Assembly: GCA_965223905.1 (NCBI GenBank)
Contig: CBDCXV010000010.1
Span: 64,001-128,000, forward strand
Length of the DNA: 64,000 nucleotides
Reading direction: 5' to 3'
From: Candidatus Latescibacterota bacterium
GTDB lineage: Bacteria; Latescibacterota; UBA2968; UBA8231
A program made the translations under genes and the position numbers. Positions 6,124-47,202 of the stretch are shown piece after piece. Under the pieces are notes generated by a model. The model was not told the origin of the DNA, made no database searches, and saw only the letters and a list, made by a program, of their open reading frames with translations. Numbering within the stretch: the stretch's first letter is position 1; each line of letters begins with the position of its first letter.

Positions 6124-7567
6124 GGGTTTTTCAACGTGGTATTTATAGCGTTTCCCCAATGAGATTTTTAGGGTTTCATACTGTACGGAATCGGGTCGGG
6201 ATCTGCGCAGGGATATCGAGGTCTCCGACGCACAGGTAAATCAGGTCGGCAAAGGCATCCAGAGTTTTAAATCCACTGGCTCGATTCTTGACCATGCGGA
6301 TAATGCGATTGAGCCCTTCGGCGGCGGCGTTGGTCAGGTGCGTGTCGACGAAGGCGGTGATGCCGGCCGCCTGCTTGCGCACCGTGTTGACGAACTTGCG
6401 CAGGGGCTGCAGGCGGCTGCGCAGGGCCGCCGTCGTCCACTTCTTGAGGAAGCGTTCGGCGGCCCAGCGCGCCTTGTAGCGCCAGAAGTGCTCGAACTCG
6501 TCCTTCAGGCGCCAGGCGCGGTAGATGCGGCGGTTGGCCTTCTCCAGGGTTTGGAGCGTGCGCCGGTCCTTTGGCGAGCGCCGGGCGGAGTGATGCAGCA
6601 GCACCCAGCGCAGGCCCTTGAGCAGCTTGCGGTCCTCGCCGCAGGCTTGCCGCCACTGCTCCTTGCGCACCTCGTCGACGGCTTCGTTGAGGGCCTTGAC
6701 GACGTGGAATCGGTCCAGGACCAACTCGGCGTTGGGACCATGCTGCCGGATGGCGCCGATGAAGGTCTCGCTCAGGTCGCAGCAGGCCCAGCGGATGCGG
6801 TCCTTCCGGAAGGCGCTGAGATGGTCCCGGAAAAACGCGTCGATGGTCTTCCGTGCCTTGCCCTTGCCGATCCAGACGACACGGGAACGTTCCAGGTCGT
6901 AGACCAGGGTAGCGTATTTATGGCCCTTGGCGTAGGAGATCTCGTCGATGCCGAGGGTCTTCAGCCGGCGGATGCGGTGCCCCGTACGCCGGCGCTCGAT
7001 GAGCCGGTGCAGCTGGTCGGACAGGGTCGACGGGGCCAGACCCAGCAGGCGCGCGGCGGCGGCCTGCGTCATCCACTGGCAGTACCTCAGCAGCAGGTAT
7101 TCGAAGCGGTAGCTGACCTGGGCCGAGCGCGCCGCCCAGGGCACCTCCTCGACGCGACGGCCGTGGGTCGGGCAGCGGATCTCCCGAGGGGCGTGGTGCA
7201 ACCAGAGGGTACGGCCGCAAACGCGGACGTCGCGCCAGCGGCGGAACTCCATGACCTGTACGATCTTGCCGCGGCGCCCACACTCGGGACACCGGCACCC
7301 GTTCCTTTGGGGCTTCACCGCGACCACGACGGCCGCTTCTTCCCCGTGTCCTTCGAACCACACGCCCACCGCGCGAAATCCCTTGAATTGGAACAGCTTG
7401 GAGACGAACTTCATAGCGGTCATAGGTCGCCTTCCCTTCCCTTTCTTGGGGAGTGCTTGATGGGGATACACCAAGCATAGGGAACGACCTATGGCCTTGT
7501 CATGTACTCAGATGGACAGCAAGGGCTCAGGTACTTTCCGTACTTACGTTTCGGCGTTGAAAAACCC
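6124..7567 (-). mobile_element. ISL3-family insertion sequence
   Basis: 13-bp terminal inverted repeats GGGTTTTTCAACG (6124-6136) and CGTTGAAAAACCC (7555-7567) enclose the transposase; no exact target duplication seen. Confidence 0.85.
6176..7423 (-). CDS. ISL3 family transposase
   Basis: CRCPECG zinc finger, LGIDEISYAKGHKY, LDRFHVVK and TNAAAEGLNRII motifs. Confidence 0.93.
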   Translation of the reverse strand: MTAMKFVSKLFQFKGFRAVGVWFEGHGEEAAVVVAVKPQRNGCRCPECGRRGKIVQVMEFRRWRDVRVCGRTLWLHHAPREIRCPTHGRRVEEVPWAARSAQVSYRFEYLLLRYCQWMTQAAAARLLGLAPSTLSDQLHRLIERRRTGHRIRRLKTLGIDEISYAKGHKYATLVYDLERSRVVWIGKGKARKTIDAFFRDHLSAFRKDRIRWACCDLSETFIGAIRQHGPNAELVLDRFHVVKALNEAVDEVRKEQWRQACGEDRKLLKGLRWVLLHHSARRSPKDRRTLQTLEKANRRIYRAWRLKDEFEHFWRYKARWAAERFLKKWTTAALRSRLQPLRKFVNTVRKQAAGITAFVDTHLTNAAAEGLNRIIRMVKNRASGFKTLDAFADLIYLCVGDLDIPAQIPTRFRTV

Positions 7568-8324: not shown

Positions 8325-9659
8325 TTAGGACCTGACCGTCGGGAAAAGCCCGCCTTCCAGTAACGCAGTGACAATTTTCTGGTTGTCTTCTACATGCTCA
8401 TTGTGATCCGCCTCCTGCACTGGATCCCATCCGGAATGCCAGTCCTCCACACCTGGATCGGCTCCAGTCTTCAAAAGCAACTCGACGACTAGTAGAGTGT
8501 CTTCGACCGGTGACGTGGAAGCGGCCGCATAGTGCAGGGGAGTCTTCCCCCATTCGTCCTGTGCATTGGGATCAGCTCCCCCGTTCAGAAGCGCAGCAAC
8601 GACAGCCAGGTCGGTTCTTTCCTGTACTGCAGCGTGCAGCAAAGATCCGTCGGAGCGGAAATAGGAATTTGGATTGGCCCCGGCATTCAGAAGCACCGTG
8701 ATGGCAGCCAGGTTTTTTCTGCTTACCGCAAGAGACAGAGGAGTTTCGCCGGAGCCCCGCGCATCTGGATCGGCTCCCGCGGCCAAGAGGGTCATGAGGA
8801 CGGGAAGGGCTACGTTGGCCGAATCGACCGCTATCTGTAGGGAAGTTTTCCCCGAACGGTAGTTTTCATCCGGATCGGCTCCCGCTTTCAGGAGCGCGTC
8901 GATGGCAGCCAAGTCGTTTTCGTAGACCACCTGATGCAGGGGAGGGGCATCCCCCGGGCACAGATGACCGTATACCAGCGCTATCGCCTGTTCATGGGTC
9001 CTTCCGGATCGTTCCCGAAGCTGTTCGTACAACTCCACCGCCTGTCTCGCTTCCTTCCTCGCGTCATTCCTTCTCCGGCTCCGCGCCCGTTCGTCCAGCG
9101 GGTCCCATTTTTGGTCCCGTTGCTGTTCCAACCACCGCACTTTCGCCCGGACCAGAACCTCGGCGAAACAATCCCGAAGGTTGTCGTCTGAGAGAAGACT
9201 GTCTCGGTCGTACGGGATCGGGTCCGCCCCCCCCTCCAGCAAGGCATCAACGATCTCCCAACCCCCATCGGCCCAACGGGCTGCCTCCAACGCCGACTCC
9301 AAAGGAGTCCACCTTTCTCCTGTAACTCCTCCATCATCCACTGTCGGGCTGCCCCCCTCAGTTGCGTCTTCGCTTCCTTCTCCGTCTGGCTCGTCGGTGC
9401 CGGCATCTTGCTCCCTCTGCTTTCTTATCTCCTCACGAGCGAAACGCCGAATCATGCGCCGCACCGGTTTAGGGTCCCACCCGGCCTGATCGACCAGGGC
9501 ATCGGCCATGAGGTTCACGAACTCGCCGAGGCTCGCCCCGGCTGCTTTGGTGTCCGCCCATGCCTGCTGGAAGTAGGGCAGGGCGTTGTTGTAGGCGTCC
9601 TCATCGAACGGGAGAGTGCCCGTAGTGAGTTGGCTCGGATCCGGCTTGGACGCAGCCAC
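8325..9659 (-). CDS. Ankyrin-repeat protein
   Basis: Repeated TPLH/TSLQ/TPLS...LLxAGADP(N/D)A ankyrin motifs in the C-terminal half. Confidence 0.85.
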   Translation of the reverse strand: MAASKPDPSQLTTGTLPFDEDAYNNALPYFQQAWADTKAAGASLGEFVNLMADALVDQAGWDPKPVRRMIRRFAREEIRKQREQDAGTDEPDGEGSEDATEGGSPTVDDGGVTGERWTPLESALEAARWADGGWEIVDALLEGGADPIPYDRDSLLSDDNLRDCFAEVLVRAKVRWLEQQRDQKWDPLDERARSRRRNDARKEARQAVELYEQLRERSGRTHEQAIALVYGHLCPGDAPPLHQVVYENDLAAIDALLKAGADPDENYRSGKTSLQIAVDSANVALPVLMTLLAAGADPDARGSGETPLSLAVSRKNLAAITVLLNAGANPNSYFRSDGSLLHAAVQERTDLAVVAALLNGGADPNAQDEWGKTPLHYAAASTSPVEDTLLVVELLLKTGADPGVEDWHSGWDPVQEADHNEHVEDNQKIVTALLEGGLFPTVRS

Positions 9660-10243: not shown

Positions 10244-11434
10244 CAGCCAACAGGGGTGATATGTTGGCCCCCTGGGGCGTCCCTGCCTCTACGTCGATCC
10301 GCCTGCCCTCTTCCAGGACCCCCGCGTTGAGCCACTTCCTGAGGTGGCGTACCACGCGTCGGTCCCGCACACGGTGCTCGACGAACCTCTCCAGCCATTC
10401 GTGGTCGATGGTGTCGAAGAACCCACGGATGTCCGCGTCGAGTGCCCAGTTCACTTTGCGGTGTCGAATCCCCACCGCCAACGCATCCAGCGCCCTGTGC
10501 GGGGCTGCGCCCCGGTCGAAAGCCATACGAGAATCCCAGGAAATCGACTTCGTAGAACCGCGTTGAGCACCTCCACGGTTGCCTTCTGGACGATCTTGTC
10601 CTCCAGCGCCGCAAGGCCCTGCGGTCTCCTGCCTCCGTCGGCTTTCGGGAGGTAGGTCCGGTTGACCGGTTTGGCTCGATACGCGCCGCGCTTGAGCCGG
10701 GCCGAAAGGTCTTCAAGTCTGCTTCCAACCCCTGCCCGTACTCGCTCCACGTCATGCGATCAACCCCCGGTGCGGCCTCCCGCTTGAGGCCGAGGTAGGA
10801 CCTCCCGGAGGCGGTCGACGGCGTAGACGTGGTGCCACAGCGTCGTGAACGGCAGCGCCCTGTCTCGAACCGCTGCTTGCCGTACGCGTTCGAGCGCCTG
10901 GTTGCAGGCCGGTCCGAATCTGCGCCCGGGACCTGGGGTGCTCGCGCGCGTTCGCCTTGGCCAGCCCCCTTCCCTCCCCCCGCTCCGCCGGCGGCGCAGC
11001 GGGCCGACCGCCCTTGTTCGCGGGGTTCCCTGGGTTGTATGGGGCGGTCCGACTTCCGGCGGTCGTGCGTCATCGGCGTATCCCACATGGGTTCCCGATG
11101 CGGACCCGGGGACCATCCCCCCGGGCCAACCGCCGGACCTCCCGGTTCCCGTACGAGGTGCCTGGGCGCATGCACCGGGTCTCTGACCGCGCCGGGTCCG
11201 GTGGACTGGCGATATCGCGCCCCCCGATGTGGCCCTCCCTCGTCTCCTAGCGGGTCGGCACCCGAAAGTTGTTCATTTCTTTCGCGGCTCAATACCGGAC
11301 CTACGCCTCCCCCTGCCAACGCTTCGCCTGCGCCGTTACCGGCGCACACGCATGACTCGAGGCTGTCGTGGTTCGCTACACCTTCAACACAGAGGACTTT
11401 CACCTCTTACACCTCGCCGGTGTGACCGGCGCAC
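10244..11434 (-). mobile_element. Group II intron (bacterial class E-like), 3'-truncated, with a frameshifted reverse-transcriptase remnant
   Basis: The minus strand begins GTGCGCC at 11434 with domain-I-like sequence (GTGAAAGTCC...GCGAAGCGTTG). RT pieces: AAPGVD, EDKIVQ, FSYGFRPGRS, LDADIRGFFDTIDH, GTPQGANISPLLA. Similarity stops at ~10244; no YADD or domain V/VI. Confidence 0.88.
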
Positions 11435-13421: not shown

Positions 13422-14636
13422 ATGGCCGATCCTGAACCTCTGAAAGAAGTGACCGCCGATCAGGTGGTGGCCCAAAAAGCCCTCAAAAAGTTGCGGAGGT
13501 ACGCCAAGGCAGTCGGCAAGCAGGAAGACACCGACTACGTAAACAGGTTGCGATCCGGACTCAGGAATCTGGTCGATCCCCCCGATGAGGGCGAAACGGA
13601 GGAAGAGGATCGGGAAGCTGACGCTCTGCTCGCCGTAGCCGAACGCTACTCCGACACCGAAGAAGCCGACCCGAAAGAACTCCTTGCCGAGATTCGGGCG
13701 GCTTTTTCCGACGACAACGACAGTTCCAAACACCTGCCGGACCCCGTAGTCGGCGACGCTTGGGATGTGGAGGACCCGGATCGCGAGTGGTTGGTTGACG
13801 GTTGGCTGCCCGCCGCCGAACTGGCCTTGCTGAGCGGCCCCGGAAACGTCGGAAAAAGCCTGTTGGTTCTGCAGCTCGCCAATGCGCTGGCTACGAGCCA
13901 GGAGGTTCCCAGTTGGCTACCCAAAGGGAAGAAAGCAACGGCCGAAGCCCCGGCCCTGAAATCGGAGGAGGGGGTGCCCGTGGTGATGGCGAATTGGGAG
14001 GACTCGGCTCCCGAAGCACGACATCGCCGTTTTAGACTGCATGCTTTCGGCGACTGCAAATGGGCGGATGCTTCCGACGTGAAAAAGCACCTGCACGTGT
14101 TGCCGATGCGCGGCCATGGCCCTACCTGGGGACCGGGCGGAACCGGACACATCTCCGTCATGGGCGAAGTGACCAAAACAGGGGAGGCCCTGCGTCGATA
14201 CTGTGAAGCCCACAAGGCCCGCCTGCTGGTGTTGGATCCGGTCAGCCTTGCCTTGGCGGTCGAGGAGAATTCCCGCCCCCTGGTTTCGGTGGCTTTGGAG
14301 AGTTGGGCCGGGTGGGCCAACGATACCGGCTGTGCGGTGTTGCTGACCGGACACCCCTCCAAGGTCACAGAAGGGGAAGGAAGCGACTACAGCGGCTCGA
14401 CGGCCTGGCGGGGCCTGGTGCGGAGCCTGTGGACGCTCAAGCCACTCAAGGATCCCGACCCCAACGCCGCAGAAACCCACGCGGAGTTGATCTTGAACAA
14501 AGCCAACTACGCCAAGGCCGGACAGATCCTGAACCTTGAGACCCACGGCAGAGGTGCTGCCTGGCATTTTCAGTCTACGGGCAGCGTGAAACGGAAGGGA
14601 ACCGGGGGGGGAAAAGAGGAAGTGAAACCGGCATGA
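13422..14636 (+). CDS. AAA_25 / RepA-like replicative helicase
   Basis: REWLVDGWLP, Walker A GPGNVGKS, Walker B LLVLDP, and GHPSK...YSGSTAW. Confidence 0.87.
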   Translation: MADPEPLKEVTADQVVAQKALKKLRRYAKAVGKQEDTDYVNRLRSGLRNLVDPPDEGETEEEDREADALLAVAERYSDTEEADPKELLAEIRAAFSDDNDSSKHLPDPVVGDAWDVEDPDREWLVDGWLPAAELALLSGPGNVGKSLLVLQLANALATSQEVPSWLPKGKKATAEAPALKSEEGVPVVMANWEDSAPEARHRRFRLHAFGDCKWADASDVKKHLHVLPMRGHGPTWGPGGTGHISVMGEVTKTGEALRRYCEAHKARLLVLDPVSLALAVEENSRPLVSVALESWAGWANDTGCAVLLTGHPSKVTEGEGSDYSGSTAWRGLVRSLWTLKPLKDPDPNAAETHAELILNKANYAKAGQILNLETHGRGAAWHFQSTGSVKRKGTGGGKEEVKPA

Positions 14637-16036
14637 ACAACCCCAAATCCCAAAATGAGGAAGCTCGGAAGTACGCCAACGACCACCGGATCGAGACTGT
14701 CCGCTACGCCATCCACGACGTCGGACGCCTGCAGGACTGGGCGAAGAAGGATCCAGAACGGTTCCCTACGGCTGTGGAGCTGGGCAAACGCTTAGAAGGA
14801 TTCGAACTCGAAGGCCGGCGCTACGTCTGTCAGAATGACGATTTTAATCCCCCAGAACTCGTAAAATTAGTGGCCGAGGCCCTGTACCCAGAGGACGAGT
14901 CAGTTTTTCTGGTGTCGGGAACATGGCAACAACCCTCTGGCCAATATGAAAAGAATCAGGAGGGTGCTAAGCCCGTTTTTGACCAGAATGGTCGGATATG
15001 GATTCCCGACGAAGACCCGTTCGAGTGGATCATCGAGGCCCTCAACGAGGCCGCGGTAAGCGCCGACGGATTGACAGCGCTGGCCGAAGTAGTACCCATA
15101 GATCCAGAAACTAGCCGACCCGATCCCATATTGGCAGCCCCTCTCGTTATGGTCCATCGAGACCACCAACAGGCCAACCTGTTCAGCCCATCGAGGTGGG
15201 GGGAGACACAAAATGGGCAGTACGAAATGTTTTCCGGATTCGGCCGCAGCCAGGAAGACGGTCCGATCGTCCCGGCACTTCCTATGGCGTTGTACGACCT
15301 GGGAGTCGGAGGCCATCAACATATATCGCCCGGTAGTGGCGCCCCGATGGCCCTGCGTATCTTCGTCGAAATGTGCCTGTCAGTACCTCTTGCAGAACGG
15401 AACCGGCCCGGCCCTGTGGTGTTAAAACCCCAACGCTTCTGCGAATTTCTGGAAACGCTGTATCCCGACTCCTCGTCCTATCGTCCCGGCCGCCACTATG
15501 GCCCCATACGCGAAGCCCTGGAAAGCCTGACGACTCCCCAAGCTCGGGTACCCTGGGTTGATCCGGAAACCGGCGACGGCGCGGCCCGTTTCGTGGTGGT
15601 TCCCTTGGACGTTCCTCGCGAAGGAAGAATGAAGGATTGGATTCAGTTCCAGGTCCATTTACCTCCCGGCTCCCACCGCGGCGCCATCGTGGACCGACCA
15701 GCCATGCGGGTAGCGGGAGTTAGGTCGGTGACGATGTATCGCATGGCGTTGTCGCTGGCACTACACTGGCACGATCCAGGACGCCTGCGAGTCCCAATTT
15801 CAAGGGGGAAAGAAAAGCATTGGTACCAAGTCCGATCCCCGGAACGATACCCCGAAGTCACGGATGCCCAATTGATTGGGATGGCCTACCCTCGCACCAG
15901 TGACGACGACAACCGCCGTATGCGGTTAAAGCGAGCTCAGGAAGCGCTAGACGCCTTGGTGGAAATCGGGTATGCCGCAGTGCATCCCAGGCGGCTAATA
16001 TATCCAGGACCCAAATGGGTGGGATGGGGTACGTAG
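14633..16036 (+). CDS. Hypothetical protein, possible replication initiator
   Basis: 467-aa ORF coupled (ATGA overlap) to the helicase and followed directly by iterons; function inferred from context only. Confidence 0.55.
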   Translation: MNNPKSQNEEARKYANDHRIETVRYAIHDVGRLQDWAKKDPERFPTAVELGKRLEGFELEGRRYVCQNDDFNPPELVKLVAEALYPEDESVFLVSGTWQQPSGQYEKNQEGAKPVFDQNGRIWIPDEDPFEWIIEALNEAAVSADGLTALAEVVPIDPETSRPDPILAAPLVMVHRDHQQANLFSPSRWGETQNGQYEMFSGFGRSQEDGPIVPALPMALYDLGVGGHQHISPGSGAPMALRIFVEMCLSVPLAERNRPGPVVLKPQRFCEFLETLYPDSSSYRPGRHYGPIREALESLTTPQARVPWVDPETGDGAARFVVVPLDVPREGRMKDWIQFQVHLPPGSHRGAIVDRPAMRVAGVRSVTMYRMALSLALHWHDPGRLRVPISRGKEKHWYQVRSPERYPEVTDAQLIGMAYPRTSDDDNRRMRLKRAQEALDALVEIGYAAVHPRRLIYPGPKWVGWGT

Positions 16037-16077: not shown

Positions 16078-16482
16078 TAACCGACAAGCACCTTCCTCCC
16101 GGAGTTAGCGGATCGCGACGTCCGCCCTGAACCCCCAAAAAGGTCTCTAACGGGATTTTATCGGCCCCTTCGAAGCGTTAGAGACGTGCTTGTCGGTTAC
16201 GCCGACCCCCCTTTACAGCCCCTGGACGTTAACCTCGGTAGCGAAAATCCTTGAAAAAAGGGGCCGTATCCGATTTTTCTCCCCTTTTTTTTCCTAAAGA
16301 CGTGCTTGTCGGTTACGCCGATCCCTTACAGGCCCTTAAAAAACGTGCTTGTCGGTTACGCACGGGTGTGTCGCCCCTCTTCTTTCCTTGAGGGGAGGCC
16401 CCCCCGTCCTGTCGGTAAAAGACGTGCTTGTCGGTTACAAAAGACGTGCTTGTCGGTTACAAAAGACGTGCTTGTCGGTTAC
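16078..16482. repeat. Iteron-like repeats (putative replication origin)
   Basis: ACGTGCTTGTCGGTTAC at ~16184, ~16300 and 16343; three exact 22-bp tandem copies AAAAGACGTGCTTGTCGGTTAC at 16417-16482; an inverted partial copy at 16078-16091. Confidence 0.8.
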
Positions 16483-17402
16483 ATTTTCGCCCCTGCTAGT
16501 TCGGCTAACTTGTTGTCTGGCAACGAGTTGATTTTTCCGCGGAATGCCCACCGACCCCGACCCCCACGAGGGGAGGGGGGGGCCGCTGGGAGGGGACGAA
16601 GGGTGGCTCCCCTCCCGCGGCCATTCCAAAAAAAACCGTTTTCGTCATGTCGGCGATCACGGTATCGTCGTCGGCCAGGTATTTCCCGAACCGGCACCGA
16701 AACCCGACCTGGGTTGTCGATGTGGGTCCGACGACCTCGAGCAGCTTGCCGACACTTCCCCGGTTTTTTTGGAAAAATTTTGAAAATTTTCCACGAGCTC
16801 TGCGCGAGGGTAACTTCACCCCGCTGCGCAGCTCCGCGCGCTTCGCCGTCGATCTGAGATCCCCCCCCGACGGTCCCCCGGCCCCCTTCGCGCTCGTTCG
16901 TTCGCGTTCTTTCCGCCCCCTCGCGTTTCTCCGCCCCTCGCGGCGCTGACCGCCCCCCCTGGACGCGCTCCGGCCCCCTTCGTTGCACCGTGCAGCACCG
17001 TCAATTCAGCCTGCGGCGCCTCGTTTTTGAGTTCGTATATCAACCATTATCACAAGTAAAACAGCACCCAGCTAATAGCTATTGTCCGGTGGGTCGTCCG
17101 CCTTCGACCAGCCCGGCCGGACGGAACGAACTACTACGCCCTCGGCCCTTGAGAACCACCAACGGCCTTTCGATGGCTTTGGGAAACCGGCAAAAGGTGC
17201 CCGAGGTAGCAGGCCCCAGGGGATTTTCAAAGTGCTTGCTGACAAACAATCAGTACGCTAAGGGGCTCTCACTCTCACTCTAACTCTAACCCATCGCAGG
17301 TTGCCCCCCCGACTCAACAAAGCGAGGACCTGAACCTCCCCCTTTCGACTCGCCGGGCTCCAACCAATCGCGCGATTCGGCGCCCTTCTGCCGAGAAACA
17401 TT

Positions 17403-17431: not shown

Positions 17432-17476
17432 CTTATCTAAATGAACACTTCACCCCCAACAGGAGGAACAAAGACC

Positions 17477-17914
17477 GTGCTGACCTACAACGACTACCGC
17501 AACGTCGATTTGCGGACGGACGTGATGGAAACGGCGTCGGGAGAGGCTGTGAAACTGCCTGAGGTGCCGTTGCCTGAGATGATTTCGTTCAGGAACAGCG
17601 TGGCGAGTGAAGGGGATTGGGTGCTTGCCGACTACCTGCGGCAGTTCGTGCCGGAGGTATTCCTGTCGAATCTCGGCGCGGCGATAGCGCACTCGATTGA
17701 CCCGGCTATGAACAGCGTCGGCGTCGAGGCGGCGATCAGGGTGTCTCATGAGACCCTGTCGGGGTTGGATGCGGAGACCTTCGCCCACGAAATCAACCTC
17801 GCCCGCGCCTGCGAGTTCATCCGGCCCGGCTACCTCGCCGCATGCGCCCGGGAGCAGGGTATGGATCAGGACTACTGCGCGGCGGCGAAGTATGTGCAGG
17901 AGGCGACGGCATGA
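17477..17914 (+). CDS. Hypothetical protein
   Basis: SD AGGAGG and GTG start; open frame, first gene of a co-directional operon. Confidence 0.65.
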   Translation: MLTYNDYRNVDLRTDVMETASGEAVKLPEVPLPEMISFRNSVASEGDWVLADYLRQFVPEVFLSNLGAAIAHSIDPAMNSVGVEAAIRVSHETLSGLDAETFAHEINLARACEFIRPGYLAACAREQGMDQDYCAAAKYVQEATA

Positions 17915-18027
17915 GCTTCTCCCTCACGGTGCTGTTCACGCTGCTTGTGATCTACCTCGTGTTGCTTCTCACGGTGCCGATTTACATGGCATTAACCACA
18001 CGTCGCAACGGGCGACGATACAGGTAA
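17911..18027 (+). CDS. 38-aa single-transmembrane peptide
   Basis: ATGA overlap with the previous gene; MSFSLTVLFTLLVIYLVLLLTVPIYMALTTRRNGRRYR. Confidence 0.55.
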   Translation: MSFSLTVLFTLLVIYLVLLLTVPIYMALTTRRNGRRYR

Positions 18028-18100
18028 CGGTGAGGGGGCGGGAGCCTTTTCGGGGCTTCCGCCTAAGCCTACGTGCCGGCGTCTCAAGTGCCGGCGCCCT
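18022..18100 (+). ncRNA. Putative type-P5 twister ribozyme 1
   Basis: GGT-AA-CGGT-GAGGGG-[GCGGGAGCC/GGCTTCCGC hairpin]-CTAA-GCCT-AC-[GCCGGC GTCTCAAGT GCCGGC]; predicted cut at 18064/18065. Confidence 0.7.
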
Positions 18101-18127
18101 TTAACCCATTCAGGAGGAACAGGCAAG

Positions 18128-18703
18128 ATGAAAGAGATCACGATTCAACGCTCGGAGCTGGAAGGGGCTGGTATCCAGCCCTACGTCGCCATGCTCCTGC
18201 TCGGACACGACCCGGGCACCTTGTCGGCGGCGACGATGCCCAAGGCGATGCGCGAGTTCGCGGCGCGCCACAACGTGCTGATGGCGCTGATGATGCCGGA
18301 CGCCTCGGCGAACTTCCGGGGTGGCAACGTGTGGGTGACAGGTTGGGCGGGGCAGGGGGCAGAGGAGGATTGGCGGCCGGAGCGATGCCAGTTCGTGGTA
18401 GAGCAGGAGACCGAGCTGATGATGCCGGTGACTTTGGAGTTGAAGATGAAATTGAGCGGCCGCGTGCTTCGGTATGACGCGGACATTCCGTCCGGTCCGG
18501 TGTCCGTGGTCGACGAATGGACCACGCTCGGGGCGATACTCGCACAGTGTCCCGAGTTGGCCGACGAGGTGCTGCGGTCAGGCGACACGCTCGCGGTGGT
18601 TATCGAGCAGCCGGAGGCCCCGGAGGCCCCGGAGCTCGGAAGCGACAAGGACCGGGATCGAATGAACAAGGACGGTACCCCGCCCATTGTTTGGTCGAGG
18701 TGA
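18128..18703 (+). CDS. Hypothetical protein
   Basis: SD AGGAGG and a 191-aa ORF. Confidence 0.7.
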   Translation: MKEITIQRSELEGAGIQPYVAMLLLGHDPGTLSAATMPKAMREFAARHNVLMALMMPDASANFRGGNVWVTGWAGQGAEEDWRPERCQFVVEQETELMMPVTLELKMKLSGRVLRYDADIPSGPVSVVDEWTTLGAILAQCPELADEVLRSGDTLAVVIEQPEAPEAPELGSDKDRDRMNKDGTPPIVWSR

Positions 18704-18775
18704 GAGGTGAGAGGGGCGGGGGGAGACCCCGCCCTAACCCCACAGCCCGGACATCTCAAGTACCGGGCCACCCAT
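18699..18775 (+). ncRNA. Putative twister ribozyme 2 (more degenerate)
   Basis: GAGAGG-[GGCGGGG/CCCCGCC]-CTAA-CCCC-AC-[GCCCGG...ATCTCAAGT...CCGGGC]; GAGG can pair with TCTC (T1); P2 is weak. Confidence 0.55.
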
Positions 18776-18792
18776 TCACAGGAGGTAGCAGC

Positions 18793-19368
18793 ATGTATCT
18801 CAGAGACGGAAAGGTCGGACAGACCTTCAAAGAGCCGAAGAGCGGCAGGTTCGTCACCCTCTTCGACATCAACGGCGGCGAGGCGACGTTCAGCTACACG
18901 ACGGGCGTCGAGGCGACGGGTATGGGACCTGTCGGCGAAGTGTTCCCGATGGGCGATTGGGAGCCTGTCCCGATCCCTGTCATCCCCGACAGCCCTTGGG
19001 GGCAAACGCAGTACGTTGGCGGCGTGGCGGAGGGCATCTACAGGATCATCACGGCCTCTCACGGCGGTCTCAGACTGTTGCAGGCTGCGCAGGACAAGCT
19101 GCCTCCGGGAGTGCGTCAGATGTTCCTGAACGGCCCCGAGTGGGCCGAAGAGGACTGCGAGGAGATCATCGTGCTCGCGTTGCTCGGGTTGACCGGCAAG
19201 CGGGAGATCCTGCTGGCGCTGAAGATGGCGCAACAGATCCCCCGGTATCAGCCGGCAGTGGCCAAGCTGTGCGAGCTCGCCGGCGTCGAGGTAGTCGAGA
19301 CCCCGGCGCTGAACCCGTTGCAGGGCTCGTACGCACACGCGGACGGGCGTACCGAGTACTCGGATTAG
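18793..19368 (+). CDS. Hypothetical protein with a DUF7007-like motif
   Basis: SPWGQTQ...AEGIYRIITASHGGLRL...WAEEDCE resembles a plasmid-associated family recalled as DUF7007. Confidence 0.6.
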   Translation: MYLRDGKVGQTFKEPKSGRFVTLFDINGGEATFSYTTGVEATGMGPVGEVFPMGDWEPVPIPVIPDSPWGQTQYVGGVAEGIYRIITASHGGLRLLQAAQDKLPPGVRQMFLNGPEWAEEDCEEIIVLALLGLTGKREILLALKMAQQIPRYQPAVAKLCELAGVEVVETPALNPLQGSYAHADGRTEYSD

Positions 19369-19371
19369 AAA

Positions 19372-19419
19372 CCACAAGGGGTAGGGGTATGACGAGCTCG
19401 TGCAGCCCCTACCCCTTGT
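19372..19419 (+). other. 15-bp perfect intergenic hairpin
   Basis: CACAAGGGGTAGGGG...CCCCTACCCCTTGTG, with no U-tract, directly before the next SD. Confidence 0.6.
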
Positions 19420-19435
19420 GGAAAGGACAAACGAA

Positions 19436-19597
19436 ATGAGCTTGAACATCGAGAAGGTGCGGGAGCTGATGGAATCGGCGGCGGAGACCCTGGAGCTGTC
19501 CGGCTCCGAGGACCTGCACGTGACCGCGGCGGCCTGCCGCATCCGCTTCTACGCTTCACAGCTGGAAGAGTGGGAGTTGGAGGTCTACGAGGAATGA
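19436..19597 (+). CDS. Small hypothetical protein
   Basis: SD AAGGA; 53-aa ORF. Confidence 0.5.
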   Translation: MSLNIEKVRELMESAAETLELSGSEDLHVTAAACRIRFYASQLEEWELEVYEE

Positions 19598-19698
19598 CAA
19601 CCATCATCGAAGTCAGGCGCATCGTTGCTTTCGACGCCAACGGAGAGCCCGTGTGGCGGACGTTGCTGGAGGTGCGCATCAGGGAGAATGAACGATGA
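19594..19698 (+). CDS. 34-aa hypothetical peptide
   Basis: ATGA overlaps at both ends and GGAGG upstream. Confidence 0.4.
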   Translation: MTTIIEVRRIVAFDANGEPVWRTLLEVRIRENER

Positions 19699-20504
19699 AT
19701 CACGCAGGAACCAAGGTTTTCACGGACAAGATCGACGACGTAAGGATGCGCGAGATGTGCAGCATCATCGCCGCCTACATCGCCTCGCGCACCGCGGCGG
19801 TAGACTGGACGGGCGTCGAGGCCCTCGCCGCCGTCGCCGCCGAACTCGGGTTTGTGGACCGGGACGGGGTGATCGTCGGCGGACTCGCCGAATACCTCCA
19901 ACAGAGCTTGGGGGCGGAGCACGTCAACTATCGGCCCGCCATCAACATCCTGCAGGCTGCCGGCAGAGCGCGGGACGTGACGGACCTGAACAGCCTCACG
20001 GTGCACGTCGATGTAGAGGTGACCGAGGGAGACATCGCGGACGGTATCCAGGGGAATTGCGACCTGTGCGCCCTGGCGCTGGCGCTGCAGCGGGCAGTTG
20101 GCATCGAGGTCCACGTGCACGTGACGGGTACGATGGCCTACCTCGACGGGTTCTATCACTGCTGGCTGCCGGCAGAGGTCAAGACCTTCATCAGCCTGTT
20201 CGACAACAACTCCGACAACGGTGTGACGGTCAAGCCCTTCAAGGTGCACCTGATCTTCATCGCGACGGGACCGAGGGCGATTCCCGAGGAAGCGCGGTGC
20301 AACGCAAGCCGGTTCAGAAACGATGCCACGCCGACGTGGAGCTACTGGATCGAGACGGACGGCCCGGTGCTGGAGGATAGCGTCAGGGCGCACACGCTGG
20401 CAGAGGCGCGGCAGTTGATCCGAGCCGCACACCCCAACGACATCGGAGCGGACGGCGAGGTCACAGGGCCTGGCGGTCACAGCTTCCCGGTGTTCAGGAA
20501 GTAG
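19695..20504 (+). CDS. Hypothetical protein
   Basis: 269-aa ORF; contains DIADGIQGNCDLCALALAL. Confidence 0.7.
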   Translation: MNHAGTKVFTDKIDDVRMREMCSIIAAYIASRTAAVDWTGVEALAAVAAELGFVDRDGVIVGGLAEYLQQSLGAEHVNYRPAINILQAAGRARDVTDLNSLTVHVDVEVTEGDIADGIQGNCDLCALALALQRAVGIEVHVHVTGTMAYLDGFYHCWLPAEVKTFISLFDNNSDNGVTVKPFKVHLIFIATGPRAIPEEARCNASRFRNDATPTWSYWIETDGPVLEDSVRAHTLAEARQLIRAAHPNDIGADGEVTGPGGHSFPVFRK

Positions 20505-20617
20505 CGGCGAGGGGACCGGGGTCCCGAAAGGGAGCGAGGGGCAGTGAGGAGCTGTCCCTCGCTTGGCAATCCCGGTCTAAGCCTACTGCCGGTGTCTCAA
20601 GTGCCGGCGCCTTCTAC
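20496..20617 (+). ncRNA. Putative type-P5 twister ribozyme 3 (branched P1 insert)
   Basis: CGGC-GAGGGG-ACCGGG...CCCGGT-CTAA-GCCT-AC-TGCCGGT-GTCTCAAGT-GCCGGCG; predicted cut at 20578/20579. Confidence 0.72.
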
Positions 20618-20641
20618 CCCATTCAGGAGCAAGAAATCGAC

Positions 20642-21259
20642 ATGGACATGGAGCGAATGATTTACCCGAACCGGGCGCAGGTTCAAATCGACGTGGTGGA
20701 CCACCTGCGAAAGGCGGCGGACTTCCTCGCTGTCGATGAGGAATCGATGCGGAATCCGGCCAACGTGGCGGCCTTGATGCTGCGGGAGATGTACACAGGC
20801 GGCGGGACGCTGTCCGATTACGTGGGCTCCTCGCTCGGGGAGTACATCGTCGAAACGCTCGGACTGACCGAGGCGCGGCTCGATTGGGAAGAGGAGGAGG
20901 ACGTGTGGATGGTGAGGCACCACAACTACGGACGGGAGACGCTCTACGGGGCCTATACCTCGTATCAGGAGATGCAGGACGCGGTGACTGCATCCGGAGT
21001 GATGGCCGTGTTCGCCTCTGACGGAGCCTGGGAGCGCATCTGTCGCCTCGACCTGTTGGACAACCCCGGAGCCGAGCGGCTGCGAGGGGAGGCCCTGGTG
21101 TCCCGCGTGAAGGAGATCCTGCGCGGCGCCGGCGCCGGCATCAGAGAAGGCGGCAGGGCGGGGGAGCTCGCCGCGTTGGCCATTCACCGCGCAAGCGGCC
21201 AATTCAGCTACGAGGACCTCAACTGCGAGGACCTCTACGAAGAGGACAAGGGGGTGTGA
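20642..21259 (+). CDS. Hypothetical protein (paralog A)
   Basis: 205-aa ORF, clearly similar to 21604-22206. Confidence 0.75.
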   Translation: MDMERMIYPNRAQVQIDVVDHLRKAADFLAVDEESMRNPANVAALMLREMYTGGGTLSDYVGSSLGEYIVETLGLTEARLDWEEEEDVWMVRHHNYGRETLYGAYTSYQEMQDAVTASGVMAVFASDGAWERICRLDLLDNPGAERLRGEALVSRVKEILRGAGAGIREGGRAGELAALAIHRASGQFSYEDLNCEDLYEEDKGV

Positions 21260-21376
21260 ACGGCGAGGGGACCGGGGTCCCGAAAAGGGAGCGAGGGGCA
21301 GTGAGGAACTGTCCCTCGCTTGGCAATCCCGGTCTAAGCCTACGTGCCGGCGTCTCAAGTGCCGGCGCTTCTCTTT
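21250..21376 (+). ncRNA. Putative type-P5 twister ribozyme 4
   Basis: Near-identical to ribozyme 3; predicted cut at 21335/21336. Confidence 0.72.
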
Positions 21377-21400
21377 TAACCCATTCAGGAGAGGATTGGA

Positions 21401-21601
21401 ATGATCTACTGCGTGGCAGTGAAGAAGTACGAAGAATGGCACTGGAGCGTCAAAGACGAAGAGGACCGCCTGTGCTACACGACAACCGCCCGCACCAACG
21501 CGAATGCGGTGGCGGAGTTCCTGTCGGACCCAAGGACGCCTCATTTCGAGGGCATGAAGGCATGGATTGCCGACGTGACCGAAAACCGAAAGGACGGGTA
21601 G
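21401..21601 (+). CDS. Small hypothetical protein
   Basis: SD AGGAGAGG; 66-aa ORF. Confidence 0.55.
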   Translation: MIYCVAVKKYEEWHWSVKDEEDRLCYTTTARTNANAVAEFLSDPRTPHFEGMKAWIADVTENRKDG

Positions 21602-21603
21602 CA

Positions 21604-22206
21604 ATGGACATGGAACGGATGATCTATCCGAACCCGACGCAGGTGAAAATCGACGTGATTCAGCATCTGCGGAAAGCGGCTGAGTTCCTCACCTTGGAAC
21701 ACCTCACGAGAACCCACCCGTCCAACGTGGCTGCCTGCCTGTTGCGGGAGACCTACGTCGGCGGCTCGATGCTCGCCGATTACGTGGCTTCCTCGCTCGG
21801 GGAGCACCTCGTCGAGACGCTCGGGCTGACCGAGGCGCGCCTCGATTGGGACCCGGACGAAAGCGTGTGGCTGGTGCATCACTTGGCCATGGAGCAGGAG
21901 ACGTTCTACGGCGGGTACAACTCATACGCGGAGATGCTACAGGCGATGGCGACAAGCGGAGGGATGGCCGTGTTCGCCTCTGATGGAGCCTGGGAGCGTA
22001 TCCGGCAGCTCGACCTCATGGACACCCCCGGAGCCGAACAGCTCACAGGAGAGCCCCTGGTAGAGCGCATACGGGAGATCATGCGAGGCGCGGGGGCGAG
22101 CATCCGGGGAGGCGGGCGTGCCGGCGAGCTCGCCGCGTTGGCCATCTACCGGGCAAGCGGGCAGTTCGCTTACAAGGACCTCACTCCAAAGGAGCAAGGG
22201 TTGTAG
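21604..22206 (+). CDS. Hypothetical protein (paralog B)
   Basis: MDMERMIYPN...GELAALAI shared with 20642-21259. Confidence 0.75.
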   Translation: MDMERMIYPNPTQVKIDVIQHLRKAAEFLTLEHLTRTHPSNVAACLLRETYVGGSMLADYVASSLGEHLVETLGLTEARLDWDPDESVWLVHHLAMEQETFYGGYNSYAEMLQAMATSGGMAVFASDGAWERIRQLDLMDTPGAEQLTGEPLVERIREIMRGAGASIRGGGRAGELAALAIYRASGQFAYKDLTPKEQGL

Positions 22207-22277
22207 CGGCGAGGGGGCGGAAGGCTACGGTCCTCCGCCTAAACCCACAGCCGGTGCCCCAAGTGCCGGCGCAACCC
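22198..22277 (+). ncRNA. Putative type-P5 twister ribozyme 5
   Basis: P5 GGGTTGT/GCAACCC; GAGGGG-[GCGGAAGG/CCTCCGC]-CTAA; L4 GCCCCAAGT (CCCC can pair with GGGG); predicted cut at 22240/22241. Confidence 0.72.
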
Positions 22278-22290
22278 ACAGGAGGAACGG

Positions 22291-23052
22291 ATGAAGTCAT
22301 TGGATGAGTGCCACGACCTGCTCGTGCAGGGAGTGAGAGAGAGGAAGAAAGAGCTGATCGAGGAGGCCCGCAACGAGGCGGCGCCGTGGTCCCTGCCCAA
22401 GATCGTGCTGAGCATGACCGGCGTGGATCTCGTCGGAACCAAGGGACACGGAAGCAACTACCTCCCGAAGGACGGCGAGCCCACCAGCGAGGTTGTCGAC
22501 CGGATCGCGATGGCCCTGTGCGGGTCGATCTTCATCGCCGACACCCTCGACAACGAGGCGAGGGACATCATTCAGAGCCGCATCTCCCTGTTGGATCAAT
22601 GGGCAGAAACGGAGAATCTGGAGACGGCGGCTCGGTTCCTGATCGAGAACCGTTGCGAGCGCAAGGTGCCGGCGACGACGGCCGCTGATTCCATCCTGTT
22701 GCTGAAGCCCTTCGTTTTTCCGCGCTACATCTCCGAGGCGGTGAAGGCGTACACCGAGCGCATCAGGCAGCACAACCGGAAGCTGATGCAGGAGGAGGAG
22801 GAGAGGGTGAGAGCGAGGCGGGCAGAGCAGGAAAACCGCGTTCACCTCGACATCATGCGAAACGGCCACTCTCTCGCCGCAGCCACCTTGAAGGGGCCGG
22901 GGGCGTGGGACATCGCCGAGGTGCTCTGCAAGAGCTTGGCGAGCGGTCCCCAATTCAGCGACTCGTTCCTGCGAATCACGTCGGGTCCCGAAAGCCGCGA
23001 GATCCCTCTTGATCTCGGCGGCAAGTTCGATGAGGAAGAGGAAGAAGAATGA
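22291..23052 (+). CDS. Hypothetical protein
   Basis: SD AGGAGG; 253-aa ORF with an acidic tail. Confidence 0.7.
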   Translation: MKSLDECHDLLVQGVRERKKELIEEARNEAAPWSLPKIVLSMTGVDLVGTKGHGSNYLPKDGEPTSEVVDRIAMALCGSIFIADTLDNEARDIIQSRISLLDQWAETENLETAARFLIENRCERKVPATTAADSILLLKPFVFPRYISEAVKAYTERIRQHNRKLMQEEEERVRARRAEQENRVHLDIMRNGHSLAAATLKGPGAWDIAEVLCKSLASGPQFSDSFLRITSGPESREIPLDLGGKFDEEEEEE

Positions 23053-23205
23053 AACCGACTCCTCCCCGTGGAGGAACAGGACCGGGGGGGGAGTGATGAA
23101 TCCAGACTGGCAAGAATCGCCTTGCAAGGGGGAGGGGGAAGGACTGCGAGGGTCCTCCCCCTCCCGAACAACAACCACTCATCCCGAGAAGGAGAATGGA
23201 TAGCC

Positions 23206-23934
23206 ATGAAGATGCACAACTCCGCAGACCGCGTCACCTGCGCCCGTGAGGCGCCCGGCGCCGGCAGGGTATCGGAGGCCGGCCCGGTGTACGACGGCCC
23301 TCTGGCGGCTCCTACGTGCCGCGAGCGGCTGATTTCGGACGGTCCCGAGTCGATGCGCGATTCGGAACTGCTGACCGTCGCCCTGGGTAGTACGGAAGAG
23401 GACGCCCGCGAGATCGTCGAGCGCTTCGACTTCGGCGAGCTGGTCAACCTGAGCGTCGACAAGCTCGCCAACCTGAGCGGCGTCACCTCCTGCCGCGCGG
23501 CGCGGCTGCTGGCCGCCGTCGAGATCGCCCGCCGGGCGCTGAATCGCGGCATCGGCATCCTGCCGGTGATTACGACGCCCGTCGAGACGATTCCGCTGCT
23601 GGCCGACATCAAGGACGAGCTCAAGGAGTTCTTCGTCTGCCTGTATCTGAACGCCCGCAATCAGGTGATCCACAAGGAGGTCGTCAGCATCGGCTCGCTG
23701 TCGGCGTCCATCGTCCACCCCCGCGAGGTGTTCCGGATCGGCGTGGCCAAGTGCGCGGCTTCGGTCATCCTCGCCCACAATCATCCCTCCGGGGACGTGT
23801 CGCCCTCCAAGGACGACATCGACCTGACGCACAGGCTGCGGGAGGCCGGGCTCATCATGGGCATCGAGGTGCTGGACCACATCATCATCGCCCGCTCGGA
23901 TTTCTGCAGCCTGAAGGAGACCGGGATCGTATGA
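23206..23934 (+). CDS. radC: RadC-family JAB-domain protein
   Basis: RERL...DSELL, EFFVCLYLNARNQVI, VHPREVF, HNHPSGDVSPSKDD and VLDHIII. Confidence 0.93.
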   Translation: MKMHNSADRVTCAREAPGAGRVSEAGPVYDGPLAAPTCRERLISDGPESMRDSELLTVALGSTEEDAREIVERFDFGELVNLSVDKLANLSGVTSCRAARLLAAVEIARRALNRGIGILPVITTPVETIPLLADIKDELKEFFVCLYLNARNQVIHKEVVSIGSLSASIVHPREVFRIGVAKCAASVILAHNHPSGDVSPSKDDIDLTHRLREAGLIMGIEVLDHIIIARSDFCSLKETGIV

Positions 23935-30924: not shown

Positions 30925-31278
30925 ATGAGTTACAAAAGCCCGCTACTGGATGAAAAGGATGAATGCACAGCCATGCTGTTGGCTACGGTCCTAATCCGGA
31001 TTCAAACATCAACTCCCGAATCTCCTCTCCGAGAGTTTTCGCGCTTTGGGTATCGAAGCCGGGTTCGCCAGGCCAAAGAAGAAGGAAAAGAGTGGCAAAG
31101 CCCTCTGGAGCTATTTGGAGATGACGAAAAACACCTTTTTGACATTGTTGAAAATATTTCGCTTCGACCTCAATATCAGCCTGTTCTGGCAGTATGCCGG
31201 GCGATTGTGATGAAAGAACCGATGTCGTCCGAGGTCTCCGTTTTTGAGTCGGTTATCGAGGCTCTCGGGATAACCTGA
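30925..31278 (+). CDS. Hypothetical protein
   Basis: 117-aa lower-GC ORF convergent with the integrase. Confidence 0.45.
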   Translation: MSYKSPLLDEKDECTAMLLATVLIRIQTSTPESPLREFSRFGYRSRVRQAKEEGKEWQSPLELFGDDEKHLFDIVENISLRPQYQPVLAVCRAIVMKEPMSSEVSVFESVIEALGIT

Positions 31279-32468
31279 TTTGATGGGTGCCGGGAACCTA
31301 CTTTCCCCAGATACGCCTCCCAATCCTCCATCAGCTTGCGGCGCAGATCGAACAGATCGCTTCTCCGGTAGGCAGCTTCGGTCCGGTCGTCGTTGACGTG
31401 GGCCAGGGCCAGCTCGCAGACCTCGCGGGGCGCTTGAGAGCACTCGGCGGCCCAATCGCGGAAGCTGCTGCGGAACCCGTGGGGCACCGCCTCGATGCCC
31501 AGTTCCTTGACGAACTGCGACAGCGACCCGTCCGCCTGCTTGCCGCGGCGCGAGCTGGGAAACACCAGCCCCGAGCCGTCGTCGAAGGCGCGCGCCTGAT
31601 CCAGCACCGCCAGGGCTCGAGGCGCCAGCGGCACGCGGTGCTCCCGGCCCTTCTTCATGCGCTCGGCCGGAATCGTCCACAACGCCCCGTCGATTTCCTC
31701 CCAGCGCGCCCCCCGGACTTCGTTGGAGCGGGTCGCGGTGAGCACCAGGAACTCGATAGCCAGCTTCCTCGGCTCCCATACTTCGGCGGCCCGCATCGTG
31801 CGCAGGGCCGCCACGACCTCGCCGTGCGGCAAGGCTTTGTAGTGGACCTTCACGGTCTCGTTCTTGGGCAGAGCCGCCTGGATGGCGTCGCCGGCCGGGT
31901 TGTCCTGGCGGTGGCCCTCGGCGACGGCCCACTTCATCACCTGCGAGATCCGCTGGCGCACCCGCTTGGCCGTCTCCCGGCGCGACGACCAGATCGGCGT
32001 GACGACGGCCAGCACGTCCGACGTCGTGATCCTGTCCACCGGCTTGCTGCCGAGCTTGGGCATGGCGTACTCGCCGAGACTCTTGCGCCAGTTTTCCTCC
32101 GAGCGGCCCCCCTCCCTCCAGGTCTCGGCGTGAATCCGGATGACGGCCTCGGCCGCGGCGGCGAAGGTGGGAACGCGGGAGGCGGCGCGTTGGGCGCGGG
32201 GGTCTGAGCCCTGCTCGACGGCGCGGCGATTCTCCAGCGCCTTGTCCCGAGCTTCTTTGAGCGTCACCAGCGGATACGGTCCGAGCCCGACGTTGGTCAG
32301 CTTCCCGTCGATGTTCAGCCGCTGGCTCCACGTCTTGGACAGCCGCCCGTTGTCCTCCCTGGGCTTGACCAGCAGCGAGAGCCCGAAGCCGCCGCGCCCG
32401 TCGCCGTAGCGGCCGGACCGGTTCACGTTTCGCACGAAGGTTGCCGAGAGCATTTTGGGGCGTTTCAT
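31176..32468 (-). CDS. P4/IntA-type tyrosine integrase with an arm-binding domain
   Basis: GRYGDGRGGFGLSL...GLGPYPLVTLKEAR; LTATRSNE (R); HGFRSSFRDW (HxxR); LAH...AAY. SD AAGGAGG precedes the ATG at 32468. Confidence 0.95.
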   Translation of the reverse strand: MKRPKMLSATFVRNVNRSGRYGDGRGGFGLSLLVKPREDNGRLSKTWSQRLNIDGKLTNVGLGPYPLVTLKEARDKALENRRAVEQGSDPRAQRAASRVPTFAAAAEAVIRIHAETWREGGRSEENWRKSLGEYAMPKLGSKPVDRITTSDVLAVVTPIWSSRRETAKRVRQRISQVMKWAVAEGHRQDNPAGDAIQAALPKNETVKVHYKALPHGEVVAALRTMRAAEVWEPRKLAIEFLVLTATRSNEVRGARWEEIDGALWTIPAERMKKGREHRVPLAPRALAVLDQARAFDDGSGLVFPSSRRGKQADGSLSQFVKELGIEAVPHGFRSSFRDWAAECSQAPREVCELALAHVNDDRTEAAYRRSDLFDLRRKLMEDWEAYLGKVGSRHPSNQVIPRASITDSKTETSDDIGSFITIARHTARTG

Positions 32469-32504
32469 GGGTCGATTTCCTCCTTGTTGACGTCCGTGGG
32501 TTAC

Positions 32505-32660
32505 GCACCACGTTATCACAAAATTATCACTATGTCAAGGAATCTTATGAAACGTAAGGAAACCACGAATCAGCCGTAAACGCCTGAAATACAGTCGATT
32601 ACAGAAACGCTACGGTAGGGTAAGAAATGGTATGAAATGCCAAAACAGTGGACAGGTCTT
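32505..32660. other. Putative right attachment region of the island
   Basis: AT-rich, with tandem TTATCAC arm-like sites at 32513-32530 and an abrupt switch to GC-rich YWTD-repeat coding sequence at ~32650. Confidence 0.55.
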
Positions 32661-46840: not shown

Positions 46841-46967
46841 GGACCCTGGAGCCCGCCGGAATCCCTCCTGACAGGCGCGTCGGCGGGCAAGAATGGGCTT
46901 GACGAACTGGAGCCGGGGCTTTAACTCTGTCGAGTGGCCTGTTGCGATCAGGCCCTGCTTTGCAAAA

Positions 46968-47165: not shown

Positions 47166-47202
47166 AGGTGAACGGAACCCTTCGGCAGAAAGGTGGTCAC
47201 CG

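Follow-up and report, generated by a model that had tools for sequence, protein, structure and literature searches.

In prophages, clustered hammerhead ribozymes flank single genes, and a role in processing polycistronic RNA has been proposed for them (Perreault 2011, PMC3088659). In the text available to us, a 2019 review also describes ribozymes that flank single prophage genes, proposes a processing role that includes bacterial twisters, and states that the purpose of bacterial twisters still needs further work to define (PMC6765202). Ribozymes between the genes of phages or mobile elements are, then, known already, having been described for prophage hammerheads since 2011. The present work concerns five elements in a 64,000-nucleotide stretch of DNA from a Candidatus Latescibacterota bacterium (assembly GCA_965223905.1, contig CBDCXV010000010.1, positions 64,001 to 128,000 of the forward strand). 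This whole stretch is referred to as the window, and positions are counted from its first letter. The five elements are probably diverged twister self-cleaving ribozymes of the type-P5 circular permutation. They are interspersed among the co-directional small genes of an operon that belongs to an integrated mobile element, and the stop codon of each preceding gene coincides with the pyrimidine-A-purine (Y-A-R) junction of the ribozyme.

Several features are shared with the prophage hammerheads, as these appear in the available parts of PMC3088659 and PMC6765202: the ribozymes lie close together, flank small genes of varying identity, and are found near an integrase. Unlike the prophage system of PMC3088659, in the part available a hammerhead system, the elements of the window are twister-like. 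Three things are different here. Firstly, the twister subfamily escapes Rfam and has an A-U pair in the T2 pseudoknot, a short P2 helix, and extra letters in the P4 loop (L4). Secondly, the subfamily sits in a Latescibacterota integrated element. Thirdly, its conserved Y-A-R junction doubles as a stop codon. The words "stop codon" occur 0 times in the available text of PMC3088659 and PMC6765202, and reuse of the junction as a stop is thus not described there. Nor was any description of this rule found in print for bacterial twisters, a result that leaves room for a mention in Roth 2014 or Felletti 2017.

The five related elements lie between co-directional genes, at positions 18025–22290. Each one extends from the stop codon of the upstream gene to just before the Shine–Dalgarno (SD) sequence of the next; all five copies, packed within 4.2 kb, are on the coding strand. 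The parts of each element follow a single order: (i) the stop codon, (ii) a 4 nt strand (CGGY or AGGT), (iii) GAGRG, (iv) a G+C-rich hairpin of variable sequence, (v) N-AA, (vi) the complementary strand, (vii) AC, and (viii) a second hairpin with the loop YCYCAAGU. The SD and start codon come after this second hairpin, with the start 20–32 nt 3' of the P4' strand.

The first copy, c1 (18025–18098, + strand), opens with the stop TAA at 18025–18027 (..AGG-TAA-CGGT), which is the Y-A-R junction; its P2' strand occupies 18028–18031, its predicted cut is T18064^A18065, and the next gene starts at 18128. Copy c2 (18701–18770, +) has the stop TGA at 18701–18703 plus an extra G (..AGG-TGA-G-AGGT), with A-G adjoining the P2' strand AGGT. 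Its predicted cut is T18735^A18736, the next gene starts at 18793, the GAG of pseudoknot T1 pairs with CUC, and P2 consists of 2 standard pairs only. In copy c3 (20502–20611, +; repeat family D7) the stop is TAG at 20502–20504 (..AAG-TAG-CGGC), the predicted cut T20578^A20579 and the next start 20642; copy c4 (21257–21369, +) has TGA at 21257–21259 plus an extra A (..GTG-TGA-A-CGGC), a predicted cut at T21335^A21336 and a next start at 21401, and is 89% identical to c3 over 76 nt. Finally, c5 (22204–22273, +) begins with TAG at 22204–22206 (..TTG-TAG-CGGC), has a predicted cut at T22240^A22241, and precedes a gene that starts at 22291. A covariance model built from four of the copies (R1) scores c1 to c5 at 88.7, 72.1, 61.0, 61.2 and 77.7 bits, respectively.

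Some local details vary among the copies. Inside P1, c3 and c4 carry inserts of ~50 nt (20518–20575 and 21275–21332), each able to form two extra hairpins. A run of 34 nt, from the cut site through P4', is identical in c1 and c4 despite their differing P1 stems. The tails of c1–c5 (18100–18112, 18772–18781, 20612–20625, 21378–21387 and 22273–22279) share ACCCA(YWC) just 5' of the SD, a motif for which no pairing partner was found. At 21344–21378, the P4 hairpin of c4 together with TTCTCTTTT was scored as terminator-like; such sites occur at chance level in the region.

Relatives were sought in the source genome and beyond. In the 7.9 Mb genome, R1 finds exactly six copies, the sixth being at positions 422774–422846 (-) of contig C9. 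This copy was first revealed by a whole-genome search with the Rfam Twister-P5 model, at 28.3 bits against a cut-off of 37.6; it aligns end to end with that model, and the printed alignment follows the twister consensus part by part. It reads TAA-CGGA, where TAA is the stop of a 202-codon gene. Among the 151 genomes around the source genome that were searched with R1, matches were obtained only in the source genome and in a genome of the same genus (G002), which contains two copies (G2A and G2B). Both the C9 copy and G2A carry CAATCGGGAGGA in the tail in place of ACCCA(YWC). Copy G2B (L016, 1501–1571, -) has lost the A of GAG and has CACG for CAAG, and its upstream stop lies 9 nt before P2'; judged from these letters, it is probably inactive.

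Pattern searches added more distant members. A strict pattern returned one locus in viral contigs and three in genome contigs; only L020, on the G002 chromosome, is strong in R1 (59.2 bits), the strict-pattern loci L017, L018 and L019 scoring at most 17.6 bits. A looser pattern gave 111 stretches in metagenome contigs, 80 of which were scored with R1, yielding 33 matches at E ≤ 1. Six were kept by eye—L061 twice, L099, L025, L085 and L021 (26.8–49.2 bits)—and the other 27 were dropped, among them L054/L087 (28.4 bits) and L059 (22.3 bits), in which P1 or P4 pairing was unconvincing. In viral contigs the looser pattern gave five loci: two are the contigs of L025 and L085, and the other three held nothing convincing. 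The relatives adjoin DUF932 and DUF7192 genes, and two are on contigs also filed as viral. The resulting alignment, A5, contains 14 sequences: the six genome copies, the two from G002, and the six metagenome members.

We file the elements as diverged type-P5 twisters because of the order of their parts and because of their pair counts and covariation, both pseudoknots included. The layout P2'-GAGRG-P1 hairpin-N^AA-P2-AC-P4/L4 is kept in 14/14 sequences of A5; in 14/14, too, a loop closes P1 and the 5' and 3' ends of the chain fall between P4' and P2', as is characteristic of the type-P5 permutation. When the structure is scored with both pseudoknots, 89.9% of cells are paired, compared with 68.7% after shuffling (0/500 shuffles reach the observed value) and at most 51.5% with slid partners. 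Compensatory changes are seen at 10/10 pairs of P1 (96.1% of cells paired), 3/4 pairs of P2 (78.2%), and 6/7 pairs of P4 (80.9%). The T1 pseudoknot, between the GAGRG strand and the P4 loop, has three pairs that are 100% paired over the 14 sequences, with a middle pair that is GC in 6, AU in 5, and GU in 3. Pseudoknot T2 joins the letters that follow P2 to those at the end of the P4 loop; all 14 sequences have A-U plus C-G there, and the set shows no variation in it. In the Rfam consensus, T2 is G-C plus C-G (GC with ..AAGC), while here AC faces ..AAGU, which makes the difference a compensatory one. The core letters GAG-G, N-AA, and the CAAG of L4 are present in 13/14 sequences, the exception being G2B.

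The closest described family is Rfam RF02684 (Twister-P5, clan CL00120). Like it, the elements have a 4 nt P2', GAGgG, a P1 hairpin, UAA, P2, two T2 letters, and a P4 with a ..CcCAAG.. loop, and the T1 and T2 pairings of the family are present. Canonical Twister-P5 ribozymes of Clostridia-side genomes likewise lie between small genes, with the upstream stop at −6 to +5 nt from the model start; canonical matches are rare, occurring in 3/151 and 1/150 such genomes, and the set used for this comparison thus comprises six matches from 301 genomes, one of which, G291 (33.1 bits), is under the cut-off. Unlike RF02684, the elements described here (i) score below the Rfam cut-off or go unreported, (ii) have A-U plus C-G in T2 instead of G-C plus C-G, (iii) carry 2–3 extra letters between P4 and the loop core, (iv) have, in the window lineage, a P2 of three pairs plus a C/U mismatch, (v) include the ~50 nt P1 insert in c3 and c4, and (vi) reside in a Latescibacterota host rather than a Clostridium-type one. 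One canonical locus, L136 (G256:C47, 1501–2522, -), holds three Twister-P5 copies within ~1 kb, ~485 nt apart, between 134-codon genes. In two of these three copies, those with the stop at −6, the upstream UGA consists of the last P2' letter and the GA of GAG.

How the stop codon relates to the fold can be seen at the 5' end of the elements. The first-pass annotation of this DNA had stated that a stop codon is built into the 5' end of each ribozyme-like element; this holds in 5/5 copies, and the elements themselves match the type-P5 twister in layout, conserved letters, and covariation, their self-cleavage being predicted. The five stop-junction strings that it quoted are all present in the places given, and in each case the triplet terminates, in frame, the best reading frame found upstream (G+C content at third codon positions, GC3, of 0.60–0.86). 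The stop ends 0, 1, 0, 1 and 0 nt, in c1 to c5, before the 4 nt P2' strand that precedes GAGRG, and in the C9 copy the distance to the first helix strand is likewise 0–1 nt. These gaps of 0 or 1 nt arise because UAA and UAG fit the junction directly, while in the two TGA copies (c2 and c4) a single additional purine leaves A-R adjacent to P2'.

The junction is conserved at the level of the RNA. In A5, all 14 sequences have a pyrimidine in column 1, an A in column 3, and a purine in column 4, which places Y-A-R directly 5' of P2'; the Rfam twister-P1 consensus prints UAAA directly 5' of the same strand. Since four A5 sequences read CAA here, which is no stop, what is conserved is a feature of the RNA rather than of the reading frame. 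In three of these four (L061a, L021 and G2B), the stop is found 0, 1 or 6 nt farther upstream. Among the ten sequences with U first, nine form stop triplets (TAA five times, TAG twice, TGA twice). All nine of these stop-capable triplets are in frame with the upstream open reading frame (ORF), compared with the one in three expected of a random frame; the nine amount to approximately 6–7 independent junctions, and two of the upstream ORFs (those of c1 and L025) are only 38 codons long. An in-frame stop at the junction is thus found more often than chance would give. On these letters, the upstream stop is what the conserved Y-A-R junction of the ribozyme itself spells as a codon. The annotation had placed the stop at a "P5a/AR junction" in all five copies: the position of the stop and the conserved A-R dinucleotide are borne out, and the P5 edge is not, the stop lying within a Y-A-R that abuts P2'. 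Readthrough of the stop by means of the downstream pseudoknot was also considered and set aside: c1 has a second in-frame TGA after one codon, and in c3 the stop and the next start are in different frames (the 140 nt from 20502 to 20642 are not divisible by 3).

The register of the stop is kept in one orthologous pair and drifts elsewhere. The C9 copy and G2A form this pair, in which both members read TAA-CGGA despite a C-terminal indel in the upstream gene (202 versus 203 codons). Within the genus, the stop is within 0–1 nt of the core in 7/8 copies, and the copy with the most distant stop, G2B, is the one that has also lost core letters. The expectation that homologous loci hold the stop in a fixed register is accordingly borne out by this one pair and fails among distant relatives, where the stop ranges from −6 to +9. 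Because relatives and canonical matches keep the stop near the ribozyme at varying distance, closeness of stop and ribozyme is general and the exact register is specific to this lineage.

A number of observations weigh against reading the elements as type-P5 twisters whose junction serves as the stop. At gathering score, Rfam reports no twister over the window, its two matches there being a group II intron and a cobalamin riboswitch; at E ≤ 10, searches over 4.5 kb (17900–22400) and over 101 nt (22195–22295) return chance-level matches and no twister. All copies miss the gathering threshold, including the sixth at 28.3 versus 37.6 bits, this threshold being a curated score cut-off and not a structural feature. 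Helix P2 is weak: c2 and c5 have 2 standard pairs, and the outer P2 pair is unpaired in 8/13 sequences. Cleavage is a prediction made from the DNA letters, and the predicted accessibility of the SD is unchanged by it, with 0.10–0.50 unpaired in both the precursor and the 3' product. In the relatives the register drifts, with distances of 3, 1, −1 and 4 nt in the subfamily plus 9 in the decayed copy. The canonical Twister-P5 matches give −6, −6, 4, 2 and 5 nt from the model start, one match being without an upstream ORF, and A-R occupies the two letters before the model start in only 3/6 of them.

The same 5' end had initially been explained by an additional helix. According to the first-pass annotation, the last codons of the unrelated upstream genes supply one strand of P5 and a stretch just before the next SD supplies the other; a terminating ribosome would melt P5, and upstream translation could in this way regulate cleavage or exposure of the downstream ribosome-binding site. 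We regard this as unlikely. Duplex energies were calculated for 13 sequences between the 14 nt that follow P4' and a 13 nt stretch whose last base is the first of the junction triplet, with 1107 random gene ends from the same genome as the control. The only convincing helix (22198–22277, +) belongs to c5, in which GGGTTGT (22198–22204, its final T being the first base of the stop) pairs with GCAACCC (22271–22277), directly after P4'. This helix is strong, with 7 bp and −11.2 kcal/mol, and 0.8% of random gene ends do as well or better; c4 (9%) and G2A (8%) are marginal. The other 10 sequences, at 32–96%, are no better than random gene ends. When cognate strands are compared with permuted, non-cognate ones, p = 0.07 for all 13 sequences, and 33/120 permutations do as well as the window's own five. 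P5 thus exceeds chance in c5 only, and the claim that last codons supply a P5 strand is not supported in its general form.

Beyond the c5 helix, the closeness of the stop to the core within the genus speaks for a link between termination and the fold, and a ribosome of known footprint size would, when at the stop, occlude the 5' strands of the ribozyme. Against a role for P5 stand the drifting stop register, the identical predicted unpaired fraction of the SD before and after cleavage, and the Rfam Twister-P5 model, which has no P5 positions. Indeed, the type-P5 fold has no need of P5, because its chain is continuous through the P1 loop.

A second explanation is that the elements are structured without being catalytic: decayed twister relics, or stabilizing or insulating hairpins, that survive as intergenic spacers. 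That Rfam does not call the elements would fit such an origin, as would a P2 reduced to 2–3 pairs and the state of G2B, with its lost A of GAG and CACG in place of the CAAG loop letters. A plain 16 bp hairpin in a slot of the same kind (19372–19421) points the same way. On the other hand, GAG-G, N-AA, CAAG, and both pseudoknots are kept in 13/14 sequences from at least six unrelated contigs, with compensatory changes in T1—a pattern of conservation expected of a tertiary structure under selection, and not of mere hairpins. We therefore consider a non-catalytic origin improbable, and retain the reading of the elements as diverged type-P5 twisters.

The remaining idea, that the elements are DNA-level cassette boundaries or recombination sites like integron attC sites (which also begin at the stops of unrelated genes), is very improbable: copies of one element do separate unrelated genes, and the 34 nt identity of c1 and c4 with differing P1 stems could reflect exchange between copies, but G-U pairs, such as the GU in three sequences at T1, work only in sense-strand RNA, every copy is on the coding strand between a stop and an SD, and no integron-type integrase was seen, the sole integrase found being a phage-type tyrosine integrase at the island end that has an arm-binding domain.

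If the elements are active type-P5 twisters, their most likely function, judged from layout and context, is the cutting of a polycistronic mRNA into single-gene units. The steps set out here are drawn from the layout and from the established chemistry of ribozymes of this class. Each upstream ORF in the tightly packed operon ends at the first letters of a ribozyme, which would cut the polycistronic RNA one base beyond P1, releasing single-gene units. The upstream mRNA would retain its stop codon, its 3' end being formed by the G+C-rich P1 hairpin and a cyclic phosphate. The downstream mRNA would start with a 5'-OH and the P4 hairpin, followed by the SD and a start codon 20–32 nt after P4'. Pairing of this new 5' end with the tail, examined by eye, offers a 4 bp option in c1 only (minimum free energy structure) and is not consistent across copies.

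The packing has a further consequence. A ribosome positioned at a stop codon covers roughly the next 10 letters. At these loci such letters comprise P2', the T1 strand, and the base of P1, and the ribozyme would fold only when the stop is unoccupied; because the same letters are involved, a terminating ribosome and ribozyme folding would be mutually exclusive. We take this exclusion to follow from the packing, rather than to be an established switch. Coupling of cleavage to translation is possible on this model. A stronger version holds that, with the stop as the junction of the catalytic core, the ribosome or release factor and the folded ribozyme exclude each other, cutting is timed by upstream termination, and the operon is split only once the preceding cistron has been translated, or only when it goes untranslated; we put this forward tentatively, as an idea with a low chance of being right.

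Two further systems with ribozymes between coding regions offer a comparison, in so far as the available parts of each source describe them. In pRAP (PMC9872166), a paper in which both "twister" and "polycistronic" appear, ribozymes are placed between cistrons for polycistronic co-expression; unlike the present locus, the arrangement is synthetic, and the part available shows no overlap with stop codons. In a fusarivirus (PMC13725137), a hammerhead fills the short intergenic region between two ORFs, as the elements do here, and cuts 7 nt before the next start. There the host system is a eukaryotic RNA virus and a role in translation initiation has been proposed; the setting here is bacterial and SD-dependent.

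The genes separated by the elements are small. Upstream of c1 is a 38-codon hydrophobic ORF (17911–18027, +) whose stop is the c1 junction and whose ATG overlaps the stop of a 157-codon gene (17441–17914). Between c1 and c2 lies a 191-codon gene without a family match (18128–18703, +), and c2 is followed by a 191-codon DUF7007 gene (18793–19368, +; Pfam PF22653, 1.3e-13). The gap between the end of this gene, at 19368, and a small ORF that starts at 19436 is filled by a perfect 16 bp hairpin (19372–19387/19406–19421) that has no following T run and occupies a slot of the same kind as the ribozymes. The stop of a 269-codon gene (19695–20504, +; phrog_19191) forms the c3 junction. Between c3 and c4 is the first of two paralogues, a 205-codon gene (20642–21259, +; repeat families D1, D2, and D5). 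The second, of 200 codons (21604–22206, +), has 76–81% DNA identity to the first, ends at the c5 junction, and is preceded by a 66-codon ORF (21401–21601). A long frame that runs through c4 (21256–22206) was judged spurious, having a GC3 of 0.69 and an Arg-rich, junk-like sequence. Downstream of c5 come a 253-codon gene (22291–23052, +) and a RadC-like gene (23068–23934).

The surrounding island contains a Toprim primase, an AAA_25 helicase, iteron-like repeats, DUF7007, RadC, DksA/TraR zinc fingers, and a tyrosine integrase. Several ribozyme-like elements thus flank single genes on the coding strand of an integrated element, which is the type of operon described by Perreault 2011. The tyrosine integrase, which has an arm-binding domain (31176–32519, -), probably lies at one boundary of the island that includes the ribozyme operon. 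A search of the window for tRNA genes found none, a promoter scan returned 0 sites, and terminator-like sites were at chance level. Six direct repeats with a common core of ~22 nt, the last three at 22 nt spacing, lie at 16179–16491, in the gap after a 467-codon gene (14633–16036). This array, which follows the primase and helicase genes and precedes the ribozyme operon, resembles replication-origin iterons or the binding sites of a regulator. Elsewhere in the window are an ISL3 transposase gene (6176–7474, -), an ankyrin-repeat gene (8325–9659, -), and two Rfam matches: a group II intron D1–D4 domain (11177–11400, -, 161 bits) and a cobalamin riboswitch (46966–47174, +, 105.5 bits).

For the biological role of bacterial twisters, this locus, with five putative ribozymes in one operon, offers a compact natural test bed. 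Each ribozyme begins in the preceding stop, according to a simple and mutable rule (Y-A-R next to P2'). The locus bears on two questions: (i) whether ribosomes and ribozyme compete for the same letters, and (ii) whether type-P5 is favoured because the upstream mRNA keeps a stop codon and a hairpin 3' end. For the family as a whole, it indicates that the Rfam twister models miss a subfamily, with A-U in T2, that is carried on mobile elements in a Latescibacterota genome and is present on several metagenome contigs. If cutting were indeed timed by upstream termination, these elements would be natural translation-gated ribozymes.

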